DNA of 20,000 bases from Seison nebaliae (taxonomy: Eukaryota): positions 46,184 to 66,183 of the forward strand of contig JALJEE010000208.1 in the NCBI GenBank assembly GCA_023231475.1, written 5' to 3'. Below are positions 1 through 19,038 of this stretch, in pieces. The notes beneath the pieces are model-generated. The model was not told where the DNA came from. It ran no database searches and worked only from the letters and a program-made list of their open reading frames with translations. Position 1 is the first letter of the stretch, and every line of letters starts with the position of its first letter. A program made the position numbers and the translations under genes.

Positions 1-39
1 TTTCACTTAATATAGTTTCTAAATATTCTACTTTGATAG

Positions 40-1579
40 TATTGTTGAGTTAATTGAATATCTTCGACCTTTATCTTATGGAGATCAACTCAAATGGAAA
101 GTGAATGAAATTGAAAAGAATTGGAGAAATCTAAGTACGACACTGTTGTGGGATGAGCATTTGCCGAGTCGAACTAGAAAATATTTGTTGGAGAACTATC
201 TTTTGTATACACACTCACCCACACTAATAGGAGTGATATCAGAAGTTTCATTTATTTTAATTTCAATCCAAAAAATTTTTGATGTGAAGGAAGAATTGGA
301 TTCATATCGAACACAAGATACATTTCTTTGTGGGAGGAATGATGACAATGAGATTCAAGTTGGTTACTATTTGAAGAGAGGAGAAAAGCAGCCTTTAATT
401 GTAGAAGCCGACGATCTTTGTACAATTCGACAGAAACATTTGAAAATTGGAAAATTATTCAAAAATTTTTTAGAAACTGCTACATCGTTTCGGATGGAAA
501 AAGGAGAGAAGGAAACTATGAAAAATTGGAAGAATGTCTTCCATCGGATAAATGTTAAATCGAATGATGATGAAAGTGATTGTCTCTTATCAATACATGC
601 ATGTCTCCGCCATCTAACGGAAAAAGAGAAGGAATTATTGAAATTTGAATTAAAAGATTATTTCAATGGAAATGATTTGATTTCTTCTCTCGTTCTCATT
701 AATAGTCCAAACGATAACATATTTTGGGATACGAGAATTGAGAAGATTATCGGAAATGGTTTCTTCGTAGAGAAATATGATAATTATCAGATTCGTCAAT
801 CTTCTTTTTCCACACCGAAAGTTCATCGAAATCAATTGATAAAAATGATGAAACAAATTAAAAACCATTTGGATGGATCGTTTAACGATTCTGTCTTGAT
901 CGATGTATGTTGCGATAGTGGATTATCATCAATCTTCTTATCAGATAATTTCCTTCAAGTATTTGCCATTGATCCCACCAAATGGTTGATCGATGATATG
1001 TTGTACAATATAGAAAGAAATAGTTCCAAATTTTTTTTTATACAGGAAATATTTGTGATATACTATTTTGATGTTTAATTAGATATCGGAAATATTTCAG
1101 CAATTTTTGGAAAATCTTATCCGAGATTGAAGGGTTTATTATATAAGTTAACGAAAGAAAAAGAGACAGATGCAATGAAGTTTAAGGATATAACGTTGCT
1201 AATTCATGTGGATTATACGAAAATAACATCTGATGGTTTTTTTTAATTACAATTTTTTACCTATTTTGTTCTAGTTCGAAAGATTGTTAGACTCGCACGT
1301 TTAAATGATAATGTGAAGAATGTAATTTATATATCTCAAAATATTGGTGGTCCAGCTCTCCATAATATTTATGAGATGACTGCTGGAAATAATCGAGGTG
1401 AAAAACTGTTTGGGAAACCATTTTTCCCTATAGACCAAATTTTCGTTGATTTAATTCCACAAACGACGGTGGTGGGAAGTGTGATATTTTTGAAAAAATT
1501 AGAAAATGATTTTCATCCACCTGACACCCGAATCTGGGAATTCCATAATGAGATTTTCGAGAATATGAAAAATTCATAA
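40..1579 (+). CDS. TRMT2/TrmA-family tRNA (uracil-5-)-methyltransferase-like protein, 5'-partial, probably catalytically inactive. Exons approx 40-244, 290-1022, 1083-1235, 1275-1579
   Basis: Translation follows TRMT2A motifs in order: LRPLSYGDQLKWK (cf. PLxxxPYxxQLxxK), YRTQDTFLCG (cf. YRNKCEFxxG), YQIRQSSF, SAM-motif-like LIDVCCDSG, VIYIS, PFFPIDQIFVDLIPQT (cf. PFxxxxAxxVDLFPQT). Introns 1023-1082 and 1236-1274 restore the frame. Intron 245-289 is 45 nt, in-frame and less certain. Confidence 0.8.
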
Positions 1580-1633
1580 AAACATTTTCTTTTTCTTCTT
1601 CCTATATCAGAGAGTGTTTTTTATAATGAGAGA

Positions 1634-3160
1634 ATGAAATTGATACGAATTCCTTTTCGGGCGTATAACGTCCGCAATTTGGACAATGATATGGCATCAT
1701 TATTCCAGAACGAGACCCGTTTGGAATCCATGAGAAGAAATTTAGATACTCGACAATTTATTGTTGATTTGGAAAAGATTCGATCGAAATGGAAAGAACT
1801 CCTTAAATTACGACAACGTATCAACGAAATAGAAAATGAACAAAAAATATTAAATAAAAAAATTCTTTCTATCGTGAGAGATGGAAATATGATACCAGAA
1901 GATTTGAAAGTTGTCGGACGTCGTTTGCGGAAGAAACATCAAGAAATTCATGAAAATGAATTGAATCCAACAGAGCTGATGTTGCGGAGAGCATTCCGTC
2001 AACTCCCCAATTCACTGCACGAATTTAGTGCACGGGTACCAAAAGCAGTAGCTCATCCACTTCGTTCCGATGATATATTTAGTTTGACAACGGTCTACCG
2101 TTCCGTCAGAAATAAACCGTCATCATCTAATTTTGCATTGAGGAGTTTCCGTCAATTGTTAGATTATTGTGCGAGACCAATGCCGACAACAGATCCAGTT
2201 CCTTGGTTTGAATGGAGATCGTCTCAACCGAAAACAACGGAGACGTTATTGCAAGATAAGAATTCGTTCATTACTTCCAAAATGGCGATTATACATGATG
2301 CAATTCCACGATATTTTAGAGGTGAATTATTGAAACTCCTAAAGAAAGAGACGATTGATGTGGAGGAAGTTGATGGTCCCTCACTCATTAAATCATCAGT
2401 TATTGACGATTGTGGTTTGGATTCAAATGATACTTCCTCCATTTATTCTTTGAACTCAACGAGCAGTACGTCTGACAATGACCGATTACATGTTGTTGGC
2501 AATGCATCGTTACCTTCATTAGTAACGAATCTCCGACATCAAACTGATGTGATTACTCCGAAAATATTTTTGACTAATGGTCGTTATTATTCAGTTAAAC
2601 GATGGCATGAAGCCAATTGTGTTAGTGTTCTAGGTGTAACAGGCAACGAATCCAAATATAATATGTTCAATAATTGGAAAAACGAAGTGAGAGATACGAA
2701 CGACATGTACAAATATTTAATAGATAAGAAAATGAATAGTTCTCAACTGGATCTTAATAAAACCGATCATATGTTCCAATGTCTATTACATCATTTCCTC
2801 CAAATCTACACGCAATTAGATATGCATTTCCGATTGGTGAATGTTAATGCAGCTGATCTGAAAAAAAACGAATCGTTACGTCTGGAAATTCATTGTTTTT
2901 CTCCATCAACTCACCAATATATTCCAGTTGCACGTCTCGCCATTCTCAACGATTATATCAGTCGCCGATCAGATATTCATATATCATCTGAAGGAAAACA
3001 GAATATAAAGTTCCCTCAGATGATATATGGGTCGCTGGTTTACACACCTTTCATGTTCGTCACTCTCATCGAAAATCGGCAATTGCCTCGCGGTTCTAAG
3101 AAGATTATCGACATTCCAGACAAATTAGAACCATATCTAGTGAATCGAACATTTATTTAA
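1634..3160 (+). CDS. Slimp: Mitochondrial seryl-tRNA synthetase paralogue, SLIMP-like (degenerate class II aaRS), 508 aa, apparently intronless
   Basis: N-terminal coiled-coil arm ending in LPNSLHE, then GPSLIKSSVIDDCG, IYSL, LHVVGNASLPS, LDMHFRLV, ESLRLEI, YIPVARLAILNDYISRR. This is SerRS layout, but the GTAE motif, motif 2 (CxRxE..GLYRVHQF) and motif 3 Arg are not recognisable. Confidence 0.8.
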   Translation: MKLIRIPFRAYNVRNLDNDMASLFQNETRLESMRRNLDTRQFIVDLEKIRSKWKELLKLRQRINEIENEQKILNKKILSIVRDGNMIPEDLKVVGRRLRKKHQEIHENELNPTELMLRRAFRQLPNSLHEFSARVPKAVAHPLRSDDIFSLTTVYRSVRNKPSSSNFALRSFRQLLDYCARPMPTTDPVPWFEWRSSQPKTTETLLQDKNSFITSKMAIIHDAIPRYFRGELLKLLKKETIDVEEVDGPSLIKSSVIDDCGLDSNDTSSIYSLNSTSSTSDNDRLHVVGNASLPSLVTNLRHQTDVITPKIFLTNGRYYSVKRWHEANCVSVLGVTGNESKYNMFNNWKNEVRDTNDMYKYLIDKKMNSSQLDLNKTDHMFQCLLHHFLQIYTQLDMHFRLVNVNAADLKKNESLRLEIHCFSPSTHQYIPVARLAILNDYISRRSDIHISSEGKQNIKFPQMIYGSLVYTPFMFVTLIENRQLPRGSKKIIDIPDKLEPYLVNRTFI

Positions 3161-3259
3161 CAATTTTTATTTCTTGTTTTATCAAATACATCAGACCAGC
3201 ATATTTTTGTAAGAGAAAAAGAAAAGAGAATAATAAAAATGAAAATTTTTTTAAATATT

Positions 3260-4009
3260 TTAATTATTTGACAATATTTCTGGTGGGGATTGTTGTTGTG
3301 GTGGTTCGTTTGGCGATTGTGTTTCATTCTTATAATCATTCGATAAATATTTTTCGTCATCATTCTCGTTAATTATCATAAATTGCGTCATTAAATAGTG
3401 ATCGATTAAATTGAGGGAACATAAAAAAATTAGAAGAATTCCTGAAAACGGTTATCAGATAAGTCAAATGAATGAAATGGGAACCTGCAAACATTCCGGG
3501 AACGCTAGAAATTATTGGCACGAATGTTGGTAATGCCAAAAGCAGATATATAATTGACAATTTCCATTGTTTCGTTAAATTTAAATAAAAGTCTGTAACT
3601 CTTTAAAAGAAAAGTTGAAAGTGGAAGTGTGAGAAAATGAGAGAACGGATAATTTTCTTTTAATTGATCGACATCATAATATTTTTGATGTTGTGAACGA
3701 AATTCGATTTCTGTCATAATTATTGCAATTAATCTTGATATGTAGACAACAAAGGCAAATTAAACAAGTTAAAAATTTCTTACCAACAATAGATAACATC
3801 CAATGAATCGGGAACCAGTCGTTGCTATACAAGAGATGGCGAACGCCCATTCACCTATCGACGAAGGTCAATCGGAAGAGCATATTGAAACAAAAGAATA
3901 TTAAATCGAAAAAAAAACATAATGTTATGAGTATTCCAAAAATCTGACGAATCGGTTTGAGATATCGATGACAAGATTGGAAAAACATTCTTTTTCTTTC
4001 ACTTTCCAT
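3260..4009 (-). CDS. TMEM72: Four-transmembrane protein, TMEM72-like (Flower/COPI-associated superfamily). Exons 4009-3919, 3854-3788, 3733-3647, 3600-3485, 3441-3260
   Basis: Four GTT..AG introns join four ORF-track fragments plus one unlisted exon into MESERKR..RQIFGILITLCEWAFAISC..IGCYLLLIAIIMTEIE..QWKLSIIYLLLALPTFVP..GMFAGILLIFL..*. The segments resemble TMEM72 as recalled (RLLGITT, FYLLxxG..E, QKFLAYLLLS, PGxMLII). Start codon uncertain. Confidence 0.6.
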
Positions 4010-4609
4010 TATTGTCGATTCGCACGAATGAAGATAAGAGTACTTGGTAACATGGTAAAATTTTAAATTAGATGGTGAATTATTTCTTTCATTAATCGAT
4101 CGGTGTAACTCATAAATTGATGGAGATTCCAATTTTAGTAGACAAATTTATTTATTTCTTTCTCATCTTCAATTCACTCGTTAGTTCTGTGGTTTGAATG
4201 AATGAATAAAAGGAATTGAAAGTGAAGCTCTTTCTCTCTCTTCTGTCGGTCCTACATAAACGAACAACTACATTAATTCCATTGCACCTTATTAAACACT
4301 CGTTCGTGTTCAATGAGGAAACTTCTCAAACACTTTATCACATTCTTCCAAATTATTCAAATAAACGATTTAAATTTCCTTTTTTATCTCATCTTAAATG
4401 TTTGTTTTCAAAATTAGCATATTTTCTATTGAATTGAGTTTTTTTTATCATTCGTTTCTTCATGTTCCTGCGTTCTTCATTTCCATCCAGAATTTGATTT
4501 ATAAAGAAAACAAGTATGAAATTTATTTCATATGATTTTCCTAAAATTAATTGAAGTGAAAGAATTTTATTTAAACACTTTATCTAGTTTTCTAAAGGAA
4601 ATTATTTTA

Positions 4610-5689
4610 TCAAGGAATCTTCTTCTTCTTTTTCGTTGTTTTCGTGTTCTTACTAATGGTTTTCGTACTCGATGGTTTCTGTTGACTACGTTGGAGTAAA
4701 TTGAGTAATTGCTCATAAGTCGAATATTTGGTTAGATAAAGTTGTTTCATAAATTCACTATTCAATTCAGAGAATATTAGTTCATGAGATTGAATGATAT
4801 TCTTTCTCGCTTTCATTAATTCAATCTTTTCTTGAAAATGATCTTCGGAACACGGATTAATTTTATTCGTTATAATATGAGTGGAAGCGATTTGTTCCAT
4901 TATATTGATATCATTCTGAGTGAGATAATTCATCATTAGTTCACGATTTCTTTTCGCATTATCTTTTATATTTTCGAATTTCTCTCTTAAAGATTCGATT
5001 CGTGTGTTCAAATAACTGTCGAGATGTTTGGAGGGAACGGAAGCATTCATTGAATGTATTTGATTGATCAGATCTTTCTGATATTCTTCATAACTTTTCT
5101 CATAATTCAGAGCATTGTTCTCGTATTTATCATCAGTTAATGTTGGTGTTTTATCACTCATTAAAATGTTAAACGTATCTTTAATCTTCTCATTTAAAGA
5201 GGCACTTTCCATCTGATTAAAATTGATATTCACATCCGATAAAGTTTGATAATTGACTTCCGATTCATTTTCTTCTTCTCGTAACTTTTGATTTTCTAAT
5301 TTACATTTCAAATTATCGAAATTCAACAAATCTTTATAATCGAATTCTGAAGCATTACTTTCTGCTTTACTTTGGTAATATTTGGGTTCGAACGTTTCCA
5401 CTTTCTCCGTTTGAATTGGACAATTTCTTAATCTTGCTTGTCGTTTCTTTAGTTTTTCTAATAAATTTCTGGATTCATCAAATAATTGCGCACCGACCGT
5501 TGAACATTCTTTTATTATGAAATCTTTATCTTCATCACACAACTCATTACCTTCACCTGCCGTCAACAACAACATTGCTTTCTTCATCTTTAATCCATAA
5601 TCTACTTGCTCTTTATTCAATTGAATGAGAGTATTGATTCCATTCCGAATTACTGTTTTTCTCTTCTTCTCATCCGTTGGATCCGACAT
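4610..5689 (-). CDS. Uncharacterised E/K/N-rich coiled-coil protein with basic K/T-rich C-terminus, about 359 aa
   Basis: Uninterrupted ORF of over 1 kb in AT-rich DNA, first ATG at 5689, helical heptad-like composition. No family recognised. Confidence 0.7.
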   Translation of the reverse strand: MSDPTDEKKRKTVIRNGINTLIQLNKEQVDYGLKMKKAMLLLTAGEGNELCDEDKDFIIKECSTVGAQLFDESRNLLEKLKKRQARLRNCPIQTEKVETFEPKYYQSKAESNASEFDYKDLLNFDNLKCKLENQKLREEENESEVNYQTLSDVNINFNQMESASLNEKIKDTFNILMSDKTPTLTDDKYENNALNYEKSYEEYQKDLINQIHSMNASVPSKHLDSYLNTRIESLREKFENIKDNAKRNRELMMNYLTQNDINIMEQIASTHIITNKINPCSEDHFQEKIELMKARKNIIQSHELIFSELNSEFMKQLYLTKYSTYEQLLNLLQRSQQKPSSTKTISKNTKTTKKKKKIP

Positions 5690-5931
5690 CACTATCGTTC
5701 GTTGGTTAAACAGAAGATTTCTTTACTTCAAAACAATTTTTAATGAATTAAACGAAATAATTATCGTATAAAATATGAGTAGAATAAATTGTTGGAGAGA
5801 AACAGTTGGAGTTGGAGAAGTCAAATGAAATTGTTTTAATGGAAATTTAACAATACAAATTATTTATGATATAAACTAGAAGAATTGTCAATTTGTATCC
5901 GTTCAAATTATAAAAGAATATTATTTAATTT

Positions 5932-8314
5932 CTAGAAATATTTCCAATCGATTAACATTTGTTGAAAGATATGAAATGAAAAGATAAAACTATTAACTGA
6001 AGCATGGATATCGAACTCTTCAATATCATCCGTCTCCGGGTTAACAGGATCACCAAAATCGGTATATTTCTCAGAACGTCTCTCTTTTTCGTTATGCTAA
6101 TAAATTATATAATTTGAACATTTATTATGAATTAGAGGAAACCTTAAACAGACGTACTTCTGGTAAGAAAGGTGGGGACAATTTACGTTCTTCTAATTTT
6201 GGAAAGTTTATTTTCTAAAAATATAATAATTTTATGGTTTTCTTCTTGTGATTTTGGGACGGGAGGGGAAGATGACTAAAATAAACTTGGAAGAAAGATT
6301 GTCGCTTGATATTTTCAAGACCATTCGGACCGAAACCTAATCTGGCCTTCGGATATCTTCGTAACATCTGGGAAATGGAAATAAATTATTTTAAGAGAAG
6401 TTTAAGAAGTAAATTTACTCGTCGTAATACATCGTACAAATTATGAGGCTTCTTTGCCACTTTGAATAACATATAACGCACTCGATCTCGGACTATCGAA
6501 TGCTCTTTAATTCTGTCCCAGGTAAAGAGATTCTGAAAAGAAAGTTTTAGAATTTTTTTAATTATCGGGAACGAGTTTTTGAAAAAAACTTTAAGAAAGA
6601 AACTTTTGGAAAAAATATCCATTTGTTTCTTTCTTTTATATTGGTTTTTAAAATTGGTTTTCTAAAAGATTTAAGCAAATTTTGGAAAAAATATTGTAAA
6701 AAAGAAAATTTTATAAAAAATTTCCAGAAATATTTTAGAATACCAATTTTAAAAAAGGGAAATTTTAGAAAAATTTTCCGAAAAAATTAAAAAATATTAA
6801 ATAAATAAATTATAATAAAAATTATGTTCAAACTTTCCCATGAATCATCCGAAACATAGTTACGGCTAAACTCCAGAAGTCTATGGCATTGGTATATGGC
6901 ATATGAGATAATAGTTCTGGCGCTGAATAAGATAATGTTCCGGCCACTGACGTGGCTGGTTCCCACCATGAAGTGGCTGATTTGCTAATACCGTAATCAC
7001 TTAATCGTGCATATCCGTCGTTATCAATGAGGATGTTATCAGGTTTAAGATCACTGAAAGAAAAATTGAGTTATAATTCTCATAAAATCGAACCGATGAA
7101 TGATACGATTGTTGTGAAGGAATTCCAATCCGATTAACATACAAGACGCGTAAAATCGAGTGGCAGAGATGCTGATAACTTTCTTTTTGTGAATAATATT
7201 TTGTAATGTGCCACGATTAGCGACTTCGATTAAAAAGAAAAGTTTAGTCTAATTGAGAGAAAAATGATTAGAGAGAAAGGAATTATAGAAAGGATGTGGA
7301 AGTGGAACTTTAGTATGGAATGAAGCGATGAGACCGATAAGAAATTTATTATGCTCCGAACTGATTAATGCATGAATGTTTCTTTCTAAGAATGCTTTCG
7401 AGAAATCTTTCTTTGTCGACATTGATGTGCGATCAATTGATTTTAAGGCAAAATACCCATATGAACGATGTCTCACTAATATCACTTGTCCGAATTTGCC
7501 TTTTCCGAGAAATTTGATGAATTCTAATTGTCTGAGTTCGATGGCACCAGTTCTAAAAGAATTGTTCAATAGAAAATAAGAGAGAAATGTGTGACCCCGT
7601 TTGGAAATTGACGACATTATTCGATTGTGATTTGGGTAATTCGAAAAAAGTATCAAGATGTTGCTCTTTCAATGGAAATGTAAATTCGAATCGTAATTTT
7701 CTCGGATCTGAAAAAGAATGGATCGAATTGATTCTATTGACGAAAAAGAACTTGCATGATATTTTGATGGAACATATGTGCCGACAATATCTTCAAGAAA
7801 CCCATTCCATTCACTTATTTCCACATCAAATTCACTTTCTCAAAAAAATTATAAGTTAATTTAACATATGACAAAATTCACTTTGATACAATTGTTGATA
7901 TTGGTGTAGTAGGAATGACAAACGTTTAGTACACAATTTACTTTCCTTCCTTAGACGTTGCAAAAGGAAACGACGATGGAGGACATGTTTCCGTTCAAGA
8001 ATCAAAGTGTCCATCATAATGAATGCTGCTTCTCTGATCTGTTTCGATTGAAAAAGGACGTCCACTCACAATTGAACAGAAATGAACTTTTAATTCAGTA
8101 CGAATATTTTGCTCGAGTTCCGGTCGATGAACTTTTATTCAATTGATATTTATTTGTATTGATGGAGAAAGAGAAAACTTGAAATACTATTGATTCGTCG
8201 CTGATTCCTTAGACCATTGATGCCACTAGAATAATCATATCCATAAAGATATTCAGTATCAGTTTCAGAATGCTTCGGTTGGATATTAGATCCGTGCTTC
8301 GATTTTTTCCGCAT
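5932..8314 (-). CDS. Divergent AGC Ser/Thr kinase with one N-terminal HR1 (Rho-binding) domain, PKN-like; about 12 exons
   Basis: HR1: LEQNIRTELK|IREAAFIMM..LRKESKLCTKRLSFLLHQYQQL. Kinase: LGKGKFGQV, FALK, HR|DLKPDN, SDYG, AGTLSYSAPE, DFWSL, LRR|MLRRYPKARLG, PPFLP. Firm introns: 8087-8039, 7308-7249, 7093-7054, 6833-6533, 6418-6368, 6286-6215. Introns near 8178, 7865, 7751, 7595 and 6142 have alternative solutions. The stop is at 5932, or 5908 if a final intron is spliced. Confidence 0.8.
6533..6833. repeat. Low-complexity alternating A-tract/T-tract sequence filling the 301-nt kinase intron
   Basis: Repeated aaaattttt, ttttggaaaaa and ttttagaaaa-like units; by far the longest intron in the window. 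Confidence 0.5.
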
Positions 8315-8856
8315 CAAATCTCCTTACGTTCTTTCATAGATACGAGGAAAGGACTTGTGAATCTATTCGTCGATCAGGAACTCAGGTCTTTCGAAATTGA
8401 TATGAAATACGTTGATGATATGAAGTTGAAATGCAACTGGTTGCTTCGTTGATAGATGAACGTAAAAAGAAAAGAAAAAAAATAGGATAGAAAGAAATTG
8501 ATAGAACTTCCAATTTTGATATGTAGTGAAAAGAAACGAATTCATACCCAAACCATTTCCACTTTACATCAAATTACTTTTTCCATTTTCCGTTAACGAA
8601 GTTTATTAATTTTTCACATTTCTTCAAAACTATTCCTCCAAACTCGAACTTTTCTTGATTTTTCTTGTGATTTGTGAATGGAAATTTTTAAATGGATATG
8701 TCAAGTTCAAAATGACGATTGGTGAAGATATTTTATAGAATTGAATGAGTTTTGAGAAGAGTTTTAGTTTAACAAAAAAGAATGAAAATTAATTTATTTT
8801 CTATAAATGAAAATATATAAGTAATGTATAAAGTAAGATAATTTCTTGTACACAAT

Positions 8857-9569
8857 TTATTTCTTTTGGATTGGTAGATAAAGTTTAAATTCAGCGGGTA
8901 ATTCGTCGTCTGAATATAACCTATCGGAGAAGTAAACACGTCGTATTCTACAATTAGCATGAATCTAAATGAGAATATAATGAAACATAGTAGAAAGAGA
9001 TGAAAGGTTGAACTTGTACACGAAGTGTCTCGATGTAATTTGTTCCGTAAGCTCGTCGAGTGAAATCGGAAAGGTTAAATTGAATCTGGTTCCAACCTTC
9101 GTCCAATCGCATTGGCATCGTGCAAATGAAAGGTTTGACTCGGGTCGTCGATTGGTAGTTAGATGCGCGGAATCGCCGTCGTACATTCTTGTCATCGAGA
9201 ACTTGAACTTCGAAAGTGAAATATTTCTTCAAGTTCTTAATTATCATGACGAGAAAAGGAAGCTTAATTCCTAAGGTTTGTTTTGGATCTGAAGGACAAG
9301 TGATAAATGTTGTACTGAAAATGGAGATGAATTGAGAAGGATTGATGATGAAAATTAACCTGACATTCGTCCCCACTATTTCCAATACTAGTGATTGGAT
9401 ATCGTTATCGGTGATTCTTTTGATATGGCCATTTCTCACCTGGAAATCGATAATATAAGAATGTTGAAATGAACTTCAATCGAACTTTCTTATCCCAAAT
9501 CTGTAGAGGTTTACTACCGATCGAGAATAGAATGGATAGGAATCCGGATTGAAACGAGTTTTTGAACAT
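8857..9569 (-). CDS. CFAP20: Cilia- and flagella-associated protein 20 (BUG22). Exons 9569-9486, 9439-9360, 9314-9014, 8964-8857
   Basis: Spliced translation [98 protein letters not shown] is near-identical to animal CFAP20, which fixes the intron boundaries exactly. Confidence 0.98.
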
Positions 9570-9842
9570 GATTCCGAGGTTGGTTTGAATACGACTGGAA
9601 TTTGTAGTATGAGGAGAAGGAATAAATAGTATTTAAAGAAACGATGATGGAATTTGACGTCCTACGCGGTTTATTGTGTCTTCCTCCAAATAATGTCGTC
9701 AAGACGACGGATGTTAATTTATTATTTATACTGGAGTGAATCAAATATTGTGATGATGACTACTATGGACATTTGGTGAGATGTCGGAGAGTTGTTGGAA
9801 ATTGTTGGAAATGATGTCTCTGAAAATTTCCCGTTCAAATCT

Positions 9843-9857
9843 GTTACTATTGACAAC
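9843..9857. promoter_or_regulatory. Putative RFX X-box in the CFAP20/BBS4 divergent promoter
   Basis: GTTACT-ATT-GACAAC, an imperfect palindrome with 3-nt spacer, about 46 nt before the proposed BBS4 ATG, between two ciliary genes. Confidence 0.55.
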
Positions 9858-9903
9858 GAGGAAAGTTAGGCTTAGCCGATTTCTTAGTATTATCGGAAAA
9901 TTG

Positions 9904-11528
9904 ATGTCGATTGGTTAATTCTCCTGTTGTTTGTTCGTAATCATTCGCTTTGTTTGTTGTCAGAATTCCTCCTCCAAAGTGAAAGGAGCAATGCCTTACT
10001 CCAACATCTTTATGCGCAGAAAGATTTCAAAACTGCCAAACGTCTCATTCATGACATAAACGATTCGACGATGAATATGTCGGAACAAGCGTCGAGATTG
10101 GAAGGATTAATTGCGCGGGAAGAAGGCAATTTACATTTGTCATCCGAATTATTTCAGAATTGCATCATACACAATCCACAGAATACGATGACTTTAAAAG
10201 AAGTAGCTAGAAATCTGTTTAATTTCCTTCTTCTCCTCCCTAAACACTTTAATTCATTCCAAGATCGTTACAATCATCAAATACAGCAGCTATCGATGTT
10301 TTCGAACAATGTGAGTCTCGTACGAAATCCAACGAGATGCTCAGTCTCATTCATTATTATAAAGGTTTCTTATTAACATCATTTCTCATTCATTATCTAA
10401 TTAATCATTTCGAATTTAGCTGAAGCTTATTTCAAATGTAAAAAGTTTGATAAATGTTTTCAAGAATTAGATATGGCTCTCAAAGCTAATGAACTCGAAC
10501 AAGCCTATATGCTCTGGCATAAGACGTTGATGCAAAAAGAATCGGAAATGAATGCCATCGCCATATCGAACAAATTGGAAGGTGGTGGCGATATGATTGA
10601 ACCGATTCAACAATCGAAAAGGAAGAAAACATTAAAAACTTCTGCAGATAGCTTATCACGTGGATGTGCCATATTTCCCGAATCATCTCCCTTATTCATC
10701 AGTTTAGGTATTGTGTATATGCAATTGAAATATTATCAGAAAGCCTTCGAATCTCTTTCGAGAGTATTGACATTCCAAAATGAGAATTTATCTGCAATTT
10801 TAGCTCTCGCTGTCATTATGCAACAACATGGTGATTATGAGGTGGCACTGAGTAAATATCGAACGGCTAGTCGAATAATTCCGGAAAGTAGTAACATCTG
10901 GAATAATATCGGAATGTGTTTTTATGGAAAGAATAAATTTGTTGCAGTTCATTTATCTTCCATTCATCAAATCTTCTTTAAAATAACTTCTAAACTTCTT
11001 TCAAGTCGATTGCCTGTTTGAAACAAGCACTTTATTTCTCTCCGTTAGATTGGAAGATTCATTACAATCTCGGTTTAGTACATATTCATGTGAAACAATA
11101 TGCGTCCGCCTTCAATTTCTTATCTGCCGCCTTATCTCTACAACCGAAAGAAATTCAGATTTATCCTTTATTGGGAAGTTTGTAAAATCTTTTTCATATT
11201 CTTCATAAATCGAATGAATTTAATGAATCACTTCCTTTCATAAGTTACTCTCTTCCATTTAGAGAATAAAGAACAATGTATGAAATGTTTCGATAAAGGT
11301 CTGGCGTTAGATAAGAATAATGTGGAGCTGCTCTACAATAAGTATGTGGCGCTAATTAAGATGGAGATGGATGGGAGAAATGTGCTAGATGAGTTGAAAG
11401 ACGTGATTTTGGAAAAGAATCGAAAGAAGATGAAGAAAGATGGGGATACTCAAGATTTTAGAATATTGATTGAAAACTTAAAAATTGATGATTCACTCAC
11501 AGAGAAATTATATTCAATTTATCTTTAA
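9904..11528 (+). CDS. BBS4: Bardet-Biedl syndrome 4 protein (BBSome TPR subunit). Exons 9904-9913, 9964-10216, 10264-10364, 10420-10946, 11006-11177, 11245-11528
   Basis: [120 protein letters not shown] all match BBS4. In-frame upstream ATGs exist from 9781, so the start is uncertain. Confidence 0.95.
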
Positions 11529-11697
11529 CCGATTTAAAATAAGTTGTTATCATTTAAAAATAAAACTCCTTTTTCAAATTCGATTTTACAACATATTCAA
11601 ATTTGAGAAACAAGTGGTTAATATCAGAATCTCATTTTATTTATTTTTTCTTCTTATAATTCTGTTCTTCATTTATTTAATTAAGAAGTTATTTCTA

Positions 11698-12804
11698 TCA
11701 AGTTTCTGTTTCAATGGTGGAAGCGGATGTATAATCAGCAGATATGAATCTCAATGGATCATCATCACTGTGCATTTGGAACATTTCCCTCGATAATTCT
11801 TTTCTTCTTCCTTCCTTATCCACTAATCGTGGAGAAATGTAACTGGTGATCGGGAGACTATAAGTATTTGTATTATTTTGATTCCGATCAGTACTCGAAA
11901 TAAATTCAGATTCAGTCACTACTTCACTAGCTGACACTTCAGTAGTACCTTCGATTGTAGATCTGTCACGATCATCTCCTGACGAAGATTCAATTGGCGA
12001 ATCGGTTTCTGTTTCAGTTGCAGTCACTTCGAACGATGTTTGTATCGTTCCAGTCTCTCGTGCCGAACTATTTGTGGGTGAAATATAAAGTGATGTGTTA
12101 TCAGTTCTAGTAAGGGAGTCTCGTCCAGTTTCATGAATACGAACCTGCAATTTCGGCGTCGTATCTCGAGAACTGGAGAAAATGGCCTGTGTACTTTTCA
12201 AAAGTCCTTTCTCAGGGAATTCTTTTTCCGTTTCATCTTCTGATACTATTTGTTGAGTTTCCTCCTCACTCCGATCAACTGTCGATTCGACAATATCTCC
12301 TTTCTGATCAATTTCTTTAATTCGAGTAATTTTCGAACGTTTTACATTATTGAAACCATTCTCCTCATTCCCGTCCTCATCTAAAGTAACTTCTGATATT
12401 TCTTCCTCAATCTCCTGCTCATATTTCTCTAATAATTGACGTTCGTTATCTTTCGTTGGTGTTGTTGGGAAAACACTATCGGGTGCAGGACTAACTGGTC
12501 GTGGAGGTGGTTGTGGTGGCAAATAAGGTGAATAATTTCGTTGATGTGAAACTTTAATTCGTTGAGATTCACCACCACGGAAACTGGGTCGTGTCAATTT
12601 GGGATCATCAGTTCGAATGTTGCCCGTCGCTATAATGATAACGGCGATGAGGAGAATAACGGTGATGGTTGAAATGATGATAATTGTGGCGATGGCGAAG
12701 AATTCGGATGAGGATAAAGTGCCCTTAGCAGTTACCATAGTTGGAAGGAAACCAACTATAAGTGCGGAAATGTAAATCACCAGATATTTGTTTAACGGTG
12801 ACAT
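11698..12804 (-). CDS. Predicted single-pass type I membrane protein: signal peptide, tiny ectodomain, long acidic S/T/E-rich tail, about 368 aa
   Basis: First ATG at 12804 (MSPLNKYLVIYISALIVGFLPTMVTA), second hydrophobic stretch FFAIATIIIISTITVILLIAVIIIA, then a Pro-rich motif and low-complexity tail. Intronless ORF, no family recognised. Confidence 0.7.
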   Translation of the reverse strand: MSPLNKYLVIYISALIVGFLPTMVTAKGTLSSSEFFAIATIIIISTITVILLIAVIIIATGNIRTDDPKLTRPSFRGGESQRIKVSHQRNYSPYLPPQPPPRPVSPAPDSVFPTTPTKDNERQLLEKYEQEIEEEISEVTLDEDGNEENGFNNVKRSKITRIKEIDQKGDIVESTVDRSEEETQQIVSEDETEKEFPEKGLLKSTQAIFSSSRDTTPKLQVRIHETGRDSLTRTDNTSLYISPTNSSARETGTIQTSFEVTATETETDSPIESSSGDDRDRSTIEGTTEVSASEVVTESEFISSTDRNQNNTNTYSLPITSYISPRLVDKEGRRKELSREMFQMHSDDDPLRFISADYTSASTIETET

Positions 12805-12877
12805 TGATAAATGAGAAATGAAGTAAGCGAACGAAAAGAAAAGAAAAAGAAAAACTTGCAAAATTAAAATTTAGTGG

Positions 12878-12891
12878 GTTGCCATGACATT
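12878..12891. promoter_or_regulatory. X-box-like motif in the divergent promoter of the membrane-protein and phosphatase genes
   Basis: GTTGCCATGACATT has a perfect GTTGCCATG half and a degenerate second half; it lies about 75 nt upstream of ATG 12804. Confidence 0.4.
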
Positions 12892-13085
12892 GAAAAGTTA
12901 CATATAAATCGAAGATGTGGAATGGTAGGATAAAGTGGAAAAAATGTGAAAGCAATGGAAAATTTTTCCGTTTCATATTTTCCCACATTTCTTTCCTTTC
13001 GAATAGGAGGCGTTAATTCTCTCCTCAAATTATTAGTCATTTCACATTTCCATGATTCTCTAATAATCATTTGTTGCATTTGAGA

Positions 13086-15061
13086 ATGGTTAACACGGAC
13101 GCTTCTTATGTCTTGAATCCTGAAGATATTCGTCATTTCCATCAACAATTCACTTCTACTCATCAATGGACAATGAAACATAATGTTCCCCTTTACAACT
13201 CTTCTCATTTCCTTCTTCATCTCATCAACAGGATATCAAACAAATCAGTCAACGAAGAACTTGCGAATTCTCCAACAATGAGTCTCTCGCTAATTTAAAT
13301 CGGAATCGTTATGCCAATGTTCTGTCATGTTCCTCACTATTATTCTCTTTTTAGAATTTCATTTTTCTTTTCTTTTTTTAAGTCGATCATACTCGAGTTC
13401 ATCTTCCACAAACCAAAAATGATTACATCAATGCCAATTTCGTCTATTTCCCATCTGTTGATCAGATTTACATTTCCGCACAAGGGCCACTCGATGGAAC
13501 GATTCATCACTTCTGGCATATGATCTGGAATCTCAACATTAATTGTATTGTCATGTTGAATAATTTGGAAGAGAAAAAACGTGTTAGTCTCATTATTTCC
13601 CTCCCTCTCTCTTTCTCTCTCTCTCTCTCACATTTTACTCACCATTAAAAACGATAAAAAAGTTTTTTTTTAAAAAGATTTCATTTTTGAATATTTTTCC
13701 GGAAATTATCATTAAATGGGAAATTTGATTTTTCTTTTCATTCTTCCAGATAAAATGCGCAATGTATTATCCAAGTTTTGATAATTTGGATAAAAGAGGT
13801 TCCCATTTTGTTTCAGGAAATTTACTCATCAATCTCTTCTCGTTGTCATGGTAACCGATGACCAGATAGCAACATGGACGTCAAGAGTGTTTACGAAGCC
13901 AATAAGAACATGTTCCACATAATCTGCATTAGTGAAATAACGGAAAATGAGAATTATACGATTCGAGAACTTTCCGTCTTCAATTATGAGATGTGTGAAC
14001 ATCGAACAATTTTTCATTGTCATTATGTGAAGTGGCCAGATTTCGGCGCTCCAGTCGTTGATTCCAACTTCCTACAATTTATAGAAGTTGTTCATCGTTA
14101 TGATAGTTTTGGACGAAAAAAAAATAAATTGAGTTCCGTCCCACCAAATTCTTCGAACGAAAAACATTTATGTCATTTTAGTCATCCACCTTTACTCGTT
14201 CACTGTTCGGCTGGTATCGGTCGAACTGGAACATTTATAGTCATCGATCTTTGTATGAAACTTCTCGATCGATTCGTTTCAACATCGAAACAAGATGAAA
14301 CGATGACTAATTTCGTTGAACTTGTCGTTCATTTGAGAACATGTCGAGAAGGATTAATTCAATCACCATCTCAATTAGAATTCTGTGTAGAATTCCTCCT
14401 TTACTTCATTGACAATTATCTAACGGGAAAGAGAAACGAACAAATTATTGACTTCAATTACAAATTACCCACAACTTGCTTAAAGAATGACGAAAATGTT
14501 GAAGAGCCAAATTGTAAAATTTCACATCGACCACAATCAGCGAGACATTCTCAAAAATTACAACGAAATCCATTGACGACTATGAGTATTTTAACTGAAT
14601 TCGAAAAATTGGATGATCATCGTCGAATGTCGATCGGTGATGACGATAATGACGACGACGACGATTTTGATGGACATGATCGACCAACAACTGCCATTTA
14701 TCAGAATGATCCTAAAAACGAAATGGAATTTCCCAAATCTTTGGAATTGGAAGGAATTATCAAAAATTATAAGAAAGCTCATAATTTCGAAGATAAATTA
14801 GAATGGAATATGAATGCTAATTATTCGGAAAGATCGTCATCGGACAACAATTATTCCAAGAGGACATCGGTGGAAAAGTATCAACAGACTACGGAAATGG
14901 TTGATGATCGGAAGGAATTTGAAAATTCCATCAAAAAATTACGGGAAGAATATAAACGAGAGAAATATCAAATGATATTGTTCTCAATGGGAATTGGAAT
15001 TCTATTCGGTATTGGATCATTTTATCTTTCTATTTATATCCGAGAACATCTTTTCTTTTAA
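13086..15061 (+). CDS. PTPN1: Non-receptor protein tyrosine phosphatase, PTP1B/TC-PTP (PTPN1/PTPN2) type with C-terminal membrane anchor. Exons 13086-13184, 13232-13328, 13383-13582, 13750-13798, 13866-15061
   Basis: RNRYANVLSF|DHTRV, NDYINAN, YISAQGPL, FWHMIW, IVMLN, KCAMYYP, KWPDFG, VHCSAGIGRTG, LIQSPSQ. Short N-terminus and hydrophobic C-tail MILFSMGIGILFGIGSFYLSIYI fit this subtype. Confidence 0.9.
13600..13628. repeat. Imperfect (CT)n microsatellite in phosphatase intron 3
   Basis: cctccctctctctttctctctctctctct read directly. Confidence 0.85.
13842..13855. promoter_or_regulatory. Consensus 14-bp RFX X-box inside phosphatase intron 4
   Basis: GTTGTCATGGTAAC matches GTTRYC-AT-GRYAAC. Confidence 0.55.
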
Positions 15062-15658
15062 TTCTGTCTTGTAATCTTTACATCGAATTAACTTATTTCT
15101 TTCCATATTCTTATTTTTCAATCATTTCTATTTAAATTAATCAAGTATTTGAATCCAGTAAATTCATCAAAAATTATCGCCTCTCACTACTAATATTTCG
15201 GTTATTTAAACGAATCAAATTTTCTAATTAAAACTTTTAGTCAATTAGTGTAGTTGTTATTTAGATACAATTCCAACTTGGGAAATAGTTCTCATTTAGT
15301 AATAATAATCTTTATATTTTGTCTGTATGTTTTCATGGGGGAAAATTGAATAATTGATTTCCTAATGGATAATTCATAAACTTTCTTCTCTTCTTGAATT
15401 CATTAACAGGTTCATTATCTTCGACGTTTCGTAATTTCGAATAAAATTCTAATATTCTTTAATGGGAAAAGTACAACAAATAAATTCTCAACTGTTCGAA
15501 GAAATAATTATATATTACAATTAGAATGTTATCGTACTAATGTTCGATGAAAGTCATTGGTGAAAAATTCAACTTGTTTATAAAACTTTTTCCTTCGATT
15601 AATTTTATTGAGATGGTATTAAAAAATAAATTTTTTTAATTAATTGACTTTTTTTCGA

Positions 15659-16315
15659 TTAATCTCTAATTTTTTCTTTCTTCTCAATAAGACGTTCAAA
15701 AGTCTGGATTGGAACTGCGTGACGTAACATCGGTCTCATTCCGAACGGAGTCATTACTGTTCGTAACGGTTGTTGTGGTTGTTGTGGTTGTAGCGGCTGT
15801 TGTGGTTGTTGTGGAAATTGTGATGGTTGCGGTTGTTGTGGTGAACCAATAGCTTGATTTTGATAAGTTGAATAAGTAGCAACTATTTCGTTTAATTTGC
15901 CGAAGACTTGTTGTAACATGGCTTGTAACATTGGCTTAATAACTTGGAGCATAGCCGAACCAAAATCGACTACACCAGGAATCGGATTGATCATATTAGG
16001 ATAAGTGGGTGATGGTGGAGTTGTGCTCATCTGTTCTAACAAATTAGCGAGTTGTCCGATGGAATTAATTTGTCTTTTTGAACGTGGCTTTTCTGTTGCC
16101 TTTTTTCCAGGTAACCGAATACGACCGATTAATGACTGTATTTTTTCGAAGACTTTATTCGTAAATCCAGAGAGCATTGGTCGAAAGAAAGAAAGAAATG
16201 TCTTTCCAACTGCTTTAGCATCAGTCTGACGAACATTCGGTTCTTTGACAGGGAGAGACGCTAAAGAACTAATTGAAATGAGAACGACAAGTGAACAGAA
16301 GATGATTCTTTTCAT
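15659..16315 (-). CDS. Secreted precursor protein, 218 aa: signal peptide, repeated amphipathic helices, furin-type RSKR site, PQQ repeats
   Basis: MKRIIFCSLVVLISISSLAS signal peptide; GKK at residues 70-72; RSKR|Q at 78-82; intronless ORF. Confidence 0.8.
   Translation of the reverse strand: MKRIIFCSLVVLISISSLASLPVKEPNVRQTDAKAVGKTFLSFFRPMLSGFTNKVFEKIQSLIGRIRLPGKKATEKPRSKRQINSIGQLANLLEQMSTTPPSPTYPNMINPIPGVVDFGSAMLQVIKPMLQAMLQQVFGKLNEIVATYSTYQNQAIGSPQQPQPSQFPQQPQQPLQPQQPQQPLRTVMTPFGMRPMLRHAVPIQTFERLIEKKEKIRD
15764..15841 (-). repeat. Coding tandem repeat (ccacaacaa)n encoding PQQ units
   Basis: Repeated ggttgttgt on the plus strand; translates PQQPQPSQFPQQPQQPLQPQQPQQPL. Confidence 0.8.
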
Positions 16316-17294
16316 AATTGATATAAAGAAAATTGTAGTTGAATATTTCGGAAAGAAGATTTATATGACATGACATTCATTGGAAGGAGAACTTGAGTAA
16401 TAAATTAACGATACATATCGAAGCCATTTATAAACAAAGAAATGGAACGAACTTTTCTTCCTATTTCTACATTATTCTTAAGTCGATTAGCAAACAGAGA
16501 GATTATTCGTTCTCTCATCGAATCTCCTTCCCCATCAATGACCAATATCCATCAATACAACTCGTCATTACCACCGTAATAATATCAAGGAAATTTGTTA
16601 ATTTAATTAAAACTAAACATTTTATTAACTAATGATATTAAATACCTATAAATATAATTCATCCACAACATAAAAGAACTAGAAGACAATTATCAGACTA
16701 AAACAAGAAAGAAGTCAAAATATATTTCAAATTTAAAAGCAATATTTCAAAAGTTTGGAGTTCATATCTATAGAGTTCAGGAAGAAAGTAAAAGTTTCTA
16801 ATAAATTAATGTTAATATACATCGAATTTAAATGGTTGAATATTAAATGAAAATATTCCGTTATGAAATTAAAAAAGTCGAATTTCAATTTCCTATCAAA
16901 ATGAATATTTTATCTTTTTTTTGCAAATTCTATCATGAAATGTTTGCAGAAATATCATTCTATTTATGCACAGAAGTTAGATTGTTGAAGTCATCCTATT
17001 TGTCGGTTATAAATAGAATAACGGCAAAATTAATTTGTGTGCGTTTTGAAACATGTCGACACAAATTTAATTTTGAACAAATTTCTGTAAAAAAAGAATT
17101 TTTCAAAAGAGAAATTATATTTTTGTGGTATTTAACTTTTTTTAATTATTATAAAATCAAAATGTCTTCGGGAAAAATTAAAGAAAAAGAATAAGAGGAG
17201 AAATTCAGATAGTTTCAATTTGAGTTGCCGTTTTAATTTTTTAAATCAAAAAAGAATTAAGAACTTTGCAAATTTAAGAATTCTTAAACTGAAA

Positions 17295-17621
17295 CTAGTG
17301 ATAGTCAACTACAACTCTCAAACAGATATTTTTTTGGCAGCATGTTTCGTCGTGCATCCATTGTGCACAAACTTCTGGGATATGATGAGGATGCAACATC
17401 GTCGTAATCAGCTGGCTTTTTTCCATTAGTTCCAACAAGGCGTTCATGACGTCCTTCGAATTAATTGCTTCTTGGACTCCGTGCAGTTTTTTTCCTGTGT
17501 CCGAAGTTCTTTCCAAAAACTCCTCCATCACTTGCGACAACTTGTCTTGATTTTCGTTTATCTGATCGAACCGTGTATTCACCTCCTTGGTGAAATGTGC
17601 CATATTATCTTTAAGGTTCAT
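17295..17621 (-). other. 108-codon coiled-coil ORF abutting the retroelement fragment; origin unclear
   Basis: Heptad-like NTRFDQINENQDKLSQVMEEF, GC content above flanks, and it starts at a duplicated ATGAACCTT 9-mer at the element boundary. Confidence 0.3.
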
Positions 17622-18250
17622 ACAAGGTTCATCTCTAAGGAAAACACGCCAGTATTGAAAGCTTGATTAACAATTTCGAGAAGAATTGCCGATAACTGAT
17701 CTCCGTAGCGTTGGACAAGTTTCGGACAGATCCCGTCGATACCGTGCGCTTTGTTGATTCCAATGGAGTTGATTGCATTGGTTATATCTCTAATCGTGAA
17801 CATATCTGGACTTGTCACGCAATCGGGAATTTGAGTTGAATAATTGGAGTCGATTTCCATCTGTGAACGGAAATGTGATGAGAATTGAGATATTGAAGGA
17901 CGATCTTGCGAATCGGTGTTAGATCTGGCGGGACGAAGACGTGCCCAGATAGTCGACTGGTTCAGAGATGAGAGAAGAGATTTCGCTGATTTCATTCGGC
18001 GGAGACGTCTGACACCATGGCGAAAAATCTTTTTCACACGAATTAGTGCTGTGGATGTTGCTAGTGATGGTGTTGTAAGGGAAATGTGGGATAATCTCGC
18101 GCATTCCATCTGTAGCGGAAGGATCGTGTGAAAGTGTGGAACTCCTGCTGATTACATCTATATTAAAATCTCCCGCGATGATAAAAGGAATCGAATAATC
18201 GAGTTGGCGATGATCTACGCACTCGAAGAACGAAGAGATGGTGGCTAAAT
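17622..18250 (-). mobile_element. Decayed non-LTR retrotransposon, 5' fragment: APE endonuclease motif plus pre-RT region
   Basis: Minus-strand PFIIAGDFNID at about 18190-18157 (APE GDFN motif). In another frame FTIRDITNAINSIGINKAHGIDGICPKLVQ..LLEIVNQAFNTGVF (cf. KAPGxDGI..N...GxFP). Frameshifted and internally shortened. Confidence 0.85.
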
Positions 18251-19038
18251 AACCTAAAGAATTTGAACACGGTGGTCAAGTCGATGAAGACTGAACTCTC
18301 AAAATGAGGCATTTCCTGCAATGACTCCAAATCAAAAATCTTGACAAACTGTCCAGTCACAAAAAAATACAACAATTTTATCGATTATAAATTCGACTGT
18401 ACCATATTCCTTGGTTGTTCTATTGACAACAAAAAGAAAAGCTCTTCCTTCGTTGAGCATATTCGAAATAAGTTCATCAGATAGTTTCACTTACTGTTAG
18501 TTCACCATCGCTGCAAATAGTTTCAATTATTCAAAATATTCTGTTGCGATTTGTATGGATTACAATGTTCAGTGTCATTTTCATTAAAATCTATGCTCGC
18601 ATTAGATCGTGCTTACAATCGCTGTATAAGAAACCTATTAGGCTGTTATCGTCCATTTTCTCGAGCCCTTTATGTTCTCGATTTCTGGGCTTCCTCCTCT
18701 TCCTCTATTGTTAGGGAAAATATTGCTCTATTGCTCTCATGCAAAACATAAAATTATCTGACTTCCGATATCCGACTTACGAACAGTGTGAGTTATTTAC
18801 GAATCCTGTCTATTTTTTTGCCACTATTACGAGATTCCAGTTCCCAACACAGTGGAAGTTGCTGAATCCTTAATATCTAATTTTTCAATCGATAACCGTG
18901 TTCCCGATATTCTTTCTCCATACATCTCTCGGGGCCATCATATTATTTCAAATCCTAATTTCTTTTATTTATTTGAATTCATTCAAAATTGCCCAAACTG
19001 GGATTCGTCATAAATAAAAAAACAAAAAAATATAAAAA
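18250..19038 (+). mobile_element. Decayed non-LTR retrotransposon, 3' fragment: RT subdomains 6-7, thumb, possible A-rich tail
   Basis: One frame from 18257: K*GISCNDSKSKIL..IFLGCSIDN..HIRNKFIR*..K*FQLFKIFCCDLYGLQ..LDRAYNRCIRNLLG, with in-frame stops at 18305, 18482 and 18518. AATAAA and an A-run at 19013-19038. The 3' limit is uncertain. Confidence 0.7.

Follow-up and report, generated by a model that had tools for sequence, protein, structure and literature searches.

In a 20,000-nucleotide (nt) stretch of the Seison nebaliae genome (contig JALJEE010000208.1, positions 46,184 to 66,183; from here on the window) the predicted introns begin mostly with GTT, and our analysis confirmed this unusual donor preference in an animal as real. 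This rotifer belongs to the seisonids (Gnathifera, Pararotatoria), lives on crustaceans (Nebalia), and its genome is compact, at about 46 Mb (PMC8351084). Five genes of the window contain 27 predicted introns (AGC-type kinase, 12; BBS4, five; phosphatase, four; TRMT2-like, three; CFAP20, three). All 27 are GT..AG introns, with 24 GTT donors and one each of GTA (6418), GTG (7881) and GTC (7595). Every donor count given here comes from this one window, that is, one locus, five genes and 27 introns with predicted splicing, and statements on published work refer to the accessible portions of the sources cited.

The strongest signal is the T at +3, found in 24/27 donors against 106/295 unused GT sites of the same genes (Fisher p = 7e-8). 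It also exceeds the 45% T of the intron interiors (p = 5e-6) and is present in 13 of the 14 introns whose position is fixed by homology (the firm set, described below; p = 3e-4). Only two of the 27 donors have a purine at +3, so that the usual GTRAGT donor consensus does not describe them. Position +4 is C in 11, T in nine and A in seven introns and never G; pyrimidines at this position (20/27) are at background (p = 0.22), and C is enriched (p = 0.005, uncorrected). With A at +4 level with background, the preference for +4A is lost, and +4U is not preferred. All three non-GTT donors carry +4A, compared with 4/24 GTT donors (p = 0.012). Position +5 is A in 10, C in nine, G in five and T in three introns, T being depleted (p = 3e-4). 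The frequency of +5G is the same as in unused GT sites (p = 0.79), slightly above the G content of the introns (p = 0.02) and below the 18/26 of control CFAP20 introns from other eukaryotes (p = 3e-4). Since all five +5G donors fall within the firm set, where the gap to the control is only marginal (5/14, p = 0.052), +5G is fairly called weak, and "lost" would be too strong. T at +6 is at background (p = 0.6). On the exon side, A is found at -2 in 17/27 introns (p = 0.004), and position -1 is A in 15, G in eight, T in four and never C (purine 23/27), with -1G not above exon background (p = 0.1). The introns are T-rich and G-poor, and 25/27 measure 39-72 nt. At least five pyrimidines in +6 to +12 were counted in 19/24 real GTT donors and in 19/105 unused GTT sites, a difference that is partly one of composition, the unused sites being mostly exonic. 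Among the many tests made on these 27 sites, only +3T, the purine at -1 and the depletion of +5T survive a rough correction. The donor is thus a low-information (A)R/GUU motif (the slash marks the exon-intron boundary) on short GT-AG introns.

The 3' ends are T-rich at -4 to -11, which fits U2-type (major) spliceosomal introns. The U12-type donor motif is RTATCCTT; none of the 27 donors matches it and nothing in the data calls for U12-type splicing, and RNA editing of +3 was set aside on the latter ground as well. Against base shuffles a TCAT/TTCAT branch-point candidate reached significance, which it lost against dinucleotide shuffles (p = 0.07-0.25), and it was rejected. The acceptors are relaxed at -3 (CAG 11, TAG 9, AAG 6, GAG 1). 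U6 N6-methyladenosine (m6A) has been reported to affect 3' site choice (PMC9803359), and the relaxed acceptor may belong to the same change as the donors.

A first-pass annotation of this DNA had described 24 GTT donors among 25 introns in six genes. The predominance of GTT holds, and the count becomes 24/27, the GTG donor at 7881 and the GTC donor at 7595 having been missed. We found five genes; the interval 7850-8320, which may be the sixth of that annotation, belongs to the kinase. All 12 of its example donors are present, and its counts of 20 pyrimidines at +4 and seven G at -1 are reproduced when the two missed introns are left out (20/27 and 8/27 in the full set), while +5G occurs in five introns and not in six. 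The motif it named, GTT followed by a pyrimidine, is correct for the strong +3U and not for +4, which is at background. Likewise, replacement of GTRAGT describes about 89% of the introns, as GTA, GTG and GTC donors remain, all with +4A.

Soundness of the intron placement

The introns were placed from six-frame translations and public Seison nebaliae proteins. Those of BBS4, of the phosphatase and of the middle of the kinase were placed before the public models were seen. The five 5' introns and the last intron of the kinase were derived from public-protein mapping, and these six therefore agree with the annotation by construction. The kinase, BBS4 and phosphatase models are identical letter for letter to the public models P0094, P0001 and P0099. 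The BBS4 exon 10422-10946 matched SNEBB_000334 with 100% identity over 100% of the query, as did a kinase exon with SNEBB_000332 and the last phosphatase exon with SNEBB_000336. For the last kinase intron there are two public isoforms with different C-termini, which share one acceptor and use GTT donors 7 nt apart, at 5997 and, in P0092, downstream at 5990 (ATA/GTTTTA).

Because a predictor trained on the Seison genome may have produced the public models, we also judged the placement by homology only. All frame-keeping GT/GC-AG pairs up to 75 nt away received a score from a profile that contained no Seison sequence, for the 24 introns of the four genes with homologs (23 valid; the kinase profile consisted of one homolog). 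Fourteen of the 23 introns ranked first by at least 6 bits, namely 13 GTT introns and the GTA intron at 6418; these form the firm set. Five others ranked first by less than 6 bits or without a competitor (8087, 7881, 6142, 13185 and 9914), and four were not first (8178, 7751, 7595 and 13799). The three TRMT2-like introns rest on the reading frame and on the spacing presumed for such proteins. This gene has a weak Pfam match (PF05958, E = 0.0017, below the cut-off), its frame is open once the three introns are removed, and a PDB search yielded no homolog for it.

A donor-blind spliced aligner, applied to CFAP20 loci of other eukaryotes, served as the control. The control set comprised the 22 of 80 fetched loci that showed gaps or lower identity, some of them near-duplicates. 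It yielded 26 introns, 18 with GTA, six with GTG and none with GTT, the remaining two being doubtful 18-nt GC introns. The same aligner, given a non-Seison query, returned all three GTT sites of the CFAP20 gene in the window. DNA runs from two studies, one of which may be the source of the window itself, contain 0.99-1.00 of the sampled words of 5800-15300, which makes sequence error unlikely. Among the listed sequencing runs that contain this DNA there is no RNA run; contigs from four runs over 1-19000 were DNA-like and had no junction at any predicted intron, which speaks neither for nor against splicing. In the 19,906 accessible rows of the transcript map of PMC8351084, none matches any of 18 exon/intron length patterns of these genes, and in the rows inspected gaps of about 40-80 nt are frequent within Seison transcripts. 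An artefact of intron placement, of self-trained annotation or of this particular window is very improbable: one trained donor model may underlie the public models, the sites are predicted, and homology leaves 13/27 introns in five genes of a single locus unfixed, but GTT prevails among the homology-fixed donors, the donor-blind contrast is complete and the letters recur in the runs of two studies.

Table 1. Genes and predicted introns of the window. Donors are given as the last three exon and first six intron letters, separated by a slash, followed by the last three intron letters; ranks and margins are those of the homology-only scoring.
Feature	Position	Strand	Donor..acceptor	Length (nt)	Remarks
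TRMT2-like tRNA uracil-5 methyltransferase gene	41..1579	+			3 introns; 5' end probably beyond the window
Intron (questionable)	245..289	+	GAA/GTTTCA..AAG	45	in frame without stop; least secure; placed solely by what we take to be TRMT2A spacing
Intron	1023..1082	+	ATA/GTTCCA..TAG	60	in-frame stop inside; shortest of 6 frame-keeping pairs
Intron	1236..1274	+	ATG/GTTTTT..TAG	39	in-frame stop inside; shortest of 8 frame-keeping pairs
AGC-type kinase gene SNEBB_000332	5911..8314	-			12 introns; P0094, last-donor variant P0092; presumably PKN-like
Intron	8132..8178	-	CAA/GTTTTC..AAG	47	public model; rank 4/5, homology does not fix donor
Intron	8039..8087	-	AAA/GTTCAT..CAG	49	public model; rank 1/12, margin 3.5 bits
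Intron	7839..7881	-	AAA/GTGAAT..GAG	43	GTG donor; public model; rank 1/18, margin 1.9 bits
Intron	7708..7751	-	CAA/GTTCTT..CAG	44	public model; rank 9/12, homology does not fix donor
Intron	7553..7595	-	GGG/GTCACA..TAG	43	GTC donor, the sole frame-keeping GT donor; public model; rank 2/4 behind a GC donor
Intron	7249..7308	-	AAA/GTTCCA..TAG	60	public model; rank 1, margin 15.7 bits
Intron	7054..7093	-	TCG/GTTCGA..CAG	40	splits HRD motif; public model; rank 1, margin 49 bits
Intron	6533..6833	-	AAA/GTTTGA..CAG	301	public model; rank 1, margin 12.9 bits
Intron	6368..6418	-	CGA/GTAAAT..CAG	51	GTA donor; public model; rank 1, margin 13.8 bits
Intron	6215..6286	-	CAA/GTTTAT..TAG	72	public model; rank 1, margin 13 bits
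Intron	6097..6142	-	AAG/GTTTCC..TAG	46	public model; 1.0 bit above in-frame GAA/GTACGT at 6157
Last intron	5932..5997	-	TCA/GTTAAT..TAG	66	public model; outside homology test
CFAP20 gene	8853..9569	-			3 introns; Pfam PF05018 and alignment to solved CFAP20 chains
Intron	9440..9485	-	AAA/GTTCGA..CAG	46	rank 1/9; recovered by donor-blind spliced alignment with non-Seison query
Intron 2	9315..9359	-	CAG/GTTAAT..CAG	45	exact 15-residue gap against PDB CFAP20; rank 1/7
Intron	8965..9013	-	CAA/GTTCAA..TAG	49	rank 1/4, 12.4 bits above GTACAA site at 9019
BBS4 gene SNEBB_000334	9904..11528	+			5 introns; model P0001
Intron	9914..9963	+	TTG/GTTAAT..CAG	50	public model; no competing donor given the start codon
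Intron	10217..10263	+	TCT/GTTTAA..AAG	47	public model; rank 1, margin 30 bits
Intron	10365..10419	+	AAG/GTTTCT..TAG	55	public model; rank 1, margin 6.5 bits
Intron	10947..11005	+	GCA/GTTCAT..AAG	59	public model; rank 1, margin 9.9 bits
Intron	11178..11244	+	GAA/GTTTGT..AAG	67	public model; rank 1, margin 43 bits
Protein tyrosine phosphatase gene SNEBB_000336	13086..15061	+			4 introns; Pfam PF00102; model P0099
Intron	13185..13231	+	AAT/GTTCCC..CAG	47	public model; rank 1, margin 5 bits
Intron	13329..13382	+	CAT/GTTCCT..AAG	54	public model; rank 1, margin 19.7 bits
Intron	13583..13749	+	CGT/GTTAGT..CAG	167	public model; rank 1, margin 24.9 bits
Intron	13799..13865	+	GAG/GTTCCC..CAG	67	public model; rank 7/15, best four donors all GTT

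Candidate readers of the GTT donor

Within the ACAGA box of U6, the enzyme METTL16 methylates the central A, the base opposite +4 of the donor (PMC11732430, PMC9803359). In the same box C42 pairs with +5G, and G44 faces +3, where it binds A or G weakly (PMC11732430). Without the U6 mark, plants and fission yeast disfavour +4A and rely on pairing of the exon with U5 loop 1 (PMC8163875, PMC9803359). The fio1 mutants of Arabidopsis move away from A+4, and in many pairs of sites with the same +4 they show G-to-H shifts at +5 together with stronger pairing to U5 (PMC9803359), and in the mtl16 mutant of S. pombe an exonic AAG rescues A4 introns (PMC8163875). The loss of +4A preference, the weak +5G and the A-rich exon ends of Seison go in the same direction as these mutants.

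Data on the splicing machinery were taken from the BUSCO sheet of PMC12256650, as a keyword subset of its 954 rows for 25 rotifer and acanthocephalan genomes; these are scores as published. The METTL16 row (363851at33208) is scored Missing in Seison only, Fragmented in one genome and Complete or Duplicated in 23 of the 25, and the gene is scored present in both acanthocephalans. SNRNP27 is Complete in Seison. Since 27 of the 29 other major-spliceosome rows in this subset are Complete too (SNRNP40 and LSm2 being Missing), Seison splicing genes are not generally scored missing. A keyword search of the sheet found no rows for U1-C, LUC7, UBL5 or WW-domain proteins; the main text of PMC12256650 contains no word beginning with "splic" or "intron", and the supplements of PMC8351084 contain no splicing-factor names. 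An Rfam scan of the window returned no small nuclear RNA (snRNA) and one small nucleolar RNA match at chance level (E = 0.18). The first-pass annotation had proposed altered U1/U6 sequences, a changed U6 m6A status or protein-led donor recognition. The changed donor preference holds, and the METTL16 score lends independent support to the U6 m6A candidate, while the loss of SNRNP27 that it had considered finds no support in the Complete score. As a separate observation in the same sheet, the two acanthocephalans share with Seison a Missing score for ZMAT5 and, together with the monogononts and one bdelloid, also for ZCRB1, a pattern hinting at a loss of the minor spliceosome in Pararotatoria.

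We tentatively favour, with somewhat less than an even chance, a major spliceosome without U6 m6A, through loss of METTL16, that reads GUU donors with the help of U5 pairing and of intron definition across short U-rich introns. An unmethylated U6 A43 would no longer favour +4A, and the donors would shift to non-G at +5 and to stronger pairing of the exon with U5 loop 1, the A-rich exon ends pairing with the uridines of the loop. The +3U might then form a G-U wobble with G44, the ACAGA box being unchanged, and this wobble would replace the helix cap provided by m6A43; GUU is reported to raise the pairing potential with an unchanged ACAGA (bioRxiv 10.1101/2022.06.08.495308). Finally, proteins would supply the missing donor specificity through intron definition across the short U-rich intron.

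Several points weigh against this mechanism. Yeasts without METTL16 have +4U and keep +5G, whereas Seison has C, U or A at +4 and G in only 5/27 introns at +5. The Watson-Crick partner of G44 is C, yet GTC occurs once in 27 donors, and the +4A carried by all three non-GTT donors suggests that this base still counts. The METTL16 score itself is to be read against the 356/954 BUSCO genes that Seison lacks, 76 of them missing in Seison but not in N. agilis. LSm2 is essential, and its Missing score, which is also confined to Seison, is therefore probably false. Given these two facts, the absence of METTL16 is a lead, perhaps as likely true as false, and not a proof. None of the METTL16-loss reports, in the parts available, describes a resulting +3U (PMC9803359, PMC8163875, PMC11732430, PMC10581693), and the +3U needs a further step beyond METTL16 loss. 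A single window with 27 introns and predicted splicing also limits the weight of the argument.

The main rival is a U1 that co-evolved with the donors as in Entamoeba, the base facing +3 having become A, so that GUU is read directly. We regard it as rather unlikely, though it is the most serious alternative. Entamoeba combines GUUUGU donors with an ACAAAC U1, and Mastigamoeba is a second case (bioRxiv 10.1101/2022.06.08.495308). A nearly fixed +3U demands a positive reader, and pairing of the Seison donors to a standard U1 in the normal register is barely above that of unused sites (5.15 vs 4.77, p = 0.10). Near-textbook exonic sites are skipped as well, such as the in-frame AAT/GTGAGT of BBS4 at 10311, which the GTT donor used at 10365 outscores by at least 16 bits. 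However, GTTTGT was found in 1/27 and GTTTG in 2/27 Seison donors, compared with 88-98% in Entamoeba, and a standard U1 is kept in most lineages with changed donors, including all Saccharomycotina examined, Giardia, Thecamonas and Mamiellales (PMC10581693, bioRxiv 10.1101/2022.06.08.495308). Loss of METTL16 and a change in U1 are not mutually exclusive; a combination in which Seison lost U6 m6A altogether and also rewrote U1 or the ACAGA box of U6 so that this snRNA reads GUU, with GT-AG kept, appears unlikely.

Less probable still is that snRNAs and marks are ordinary, and that pairing is relaxed in a compact genome where a U-binding protein (TIA1/Nam8-like, or a changed U1-C or LUC7) selects +3U. 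The short introns with about 45% T, the downstream pyrimidine tract, which is the best discriminator of real donors, and the failure of any branch-point motif to remain significant after dinucleotide shuffling would suit such a reader, but a signal as sharp as that at +3 (89%), next to a depletion of T at +5 (3/27, p = 3e-4), is not expected from a general U-binder. A standard U1 bound one base out of step, in a shifted or bulged register that favours A/GUU, is improbable. Such registers are known in human sites (PMC11162779), donors and unused GT sites differ more clearly in the shifted register (5.02 vs 4.06, p = 1e-4) than in the normal one, and -1 is A in 15/27 introns. Its hallmarks, +6G and GTTNNGT, are nevertheless found in 0/27 introns each, and among GTT sites alone it performs no better (p = 0.049) than the normal register (p = 0.015).

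Comparison with other lineages

In nematodes, mites and bdelloids, GTT starts a minority of introns, mostly together with +5G. A full-text literature search, with most subscription journals outside its reach, found no description of a Seison or rotifer donor consensus; among 30 listed of the 134 papers that one search returned, none mentions METTL16. GTT donors are not described in the accessible parts of PMC8351084, the Pomphorhynchus genome paper (PMC7310846), a lamin paper (PMC10125929) or an intron taxonomy (PMC11347168), nor, for Seison, in those of PMC11162779, bioRxiv 10.1101/2024.08.22.609214, PMC10581693 and PMC13326754. A metagenome scan for CFAP20 returned mostly intronless or unassigned loci and yielded no donors of other rotifers; GTT donors may predate Seison.

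The GUUUGU(U) donors of Entamoeba resemble those of Seison in having +3U in most introns, within GT-AG introns of an AT-rich genome (bioRxiv 10.1101/2022.06.08.495308). Entamoeba, however, is intron-poor, with a rigid GUUUG (97-98%) and a co-evolved U1, whereas Seison is an animal, intron-dense (27 introns in five genes), with +5G in 5/27 introns and no fixed +4. With the Saccharomycotina that lost METTL16 or SNRNP27K (PMC10581693, PMC11732430) and the fio1 and mtl16 mutants (PMC9803359, PMC8163875), Seison shares the disappearance of the +4A preference and, if the BUSCO score is right, the absence of METTL16; as in these systems, its exon ends favour bases able to pair with U5 loop 1. In contrast, the Saccharomycotina have +4U, keep +3A and +5G and have few introns, while Seison keeps SNRNP27 according to BUSCO and shows C, U or A at +4, a weak +5G and a new +3U. 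The U5-class (AG//GU) donors of plants and animals (PMC9803359) are similar in that a weak match to U6 ACAGA is offset by -2A and a purine at -1. Unlike them, Seison has more A than G at -1 (15 vs 8) and +3U, and nearly all its donors belong to this one class instead of being divided between two.

Fritillaria borealis (PMC13326754) is, like Seison, an animal, and its changed donor code has been linked to reduced U6 m6A. Its introns escape GT-AG, are G-rich after +2 and are accompanied by a duplicated U2AF, whereas Seison keeps GT-AG in 27/27 introns and changed +3 to U. Human sites read in shifted or bulged U1 registers (PMC11162779) share the A/GUU start, while the shifted GT at +6/+7 is found in 0/27 Seison introns. 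The changed donor code of Seison thus belongs to a known kind of change, and its form is new, with a concrete candidate cause.

Intron-poor yeasts provided the evidence for a link between U6 m6A and donor sequence over evolutionary time; in the literature covered, the only case from an animal is the tunicate with non-canonical introns (PMC13326754). If our reading is true, Seison would add an animal that is dense in introns, keeps GT-AG, has a +3U donor and may lack METTL16, and it would serve as a natural experiment on the reading of intron starts, bearing on the co-evolution of snRNAs and donors, on the reader of +3 and on the m6A dependence of the two animal donor classes. Its close relatives (two acanthocephalans and 22 free-living rotifers) are scored as keeping METTL16, which offers a ready-made comparison. 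A practical consequence is that Seison introns will be misplaced by gene finders and aligners that expect GTR.

Other sequences in the window

Four intronless open reading frames (ORFs) lie between or beyond the spliced genes. The ORF at 1634-3160 (+) encodes 508 amino acids (aa) and exists as an NCBI protein, without a Pfam match at E 0.01; it presumably resembles a divergent seryl-tRNA synthetase. The others, without a Pfam family, encode a 359-aa protein at 4613-5689 (-), a Ser/Thr/Glu-rich protein with hydrophobic N-terminal stretches at 11701-12804 (-), and a 218-aa Gln/Pro-rich, secreted-looking protein at 15662-16315 (-). The interval 3260-4400 (-) contains several hydrophobic open frames, which point to a spliced gene for a membrane protein, with a weak Pfam WRW match below the cut-off and what we take to be a possible LMBR1/LMBRD1-like stretch; the ORF at 3854-4147 gave no usable Atlas match.

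The region from about 16750 to 19000 is a high-copy repeat, with a read depth of 100-400 compared with less than 12 in the genes. Its broken frames presumably resemble a non-long-terminal-repeat (non-LTR) retroelement, and no Pfam match to a domain of such elements was obtained there. Additionally, a short low-depth contig from one DNA run (X1), corresponding to 9032-9238, differs from CFAP20 exon 3 at 23/207 positions, as would a second lineage or a relative present in the sample.

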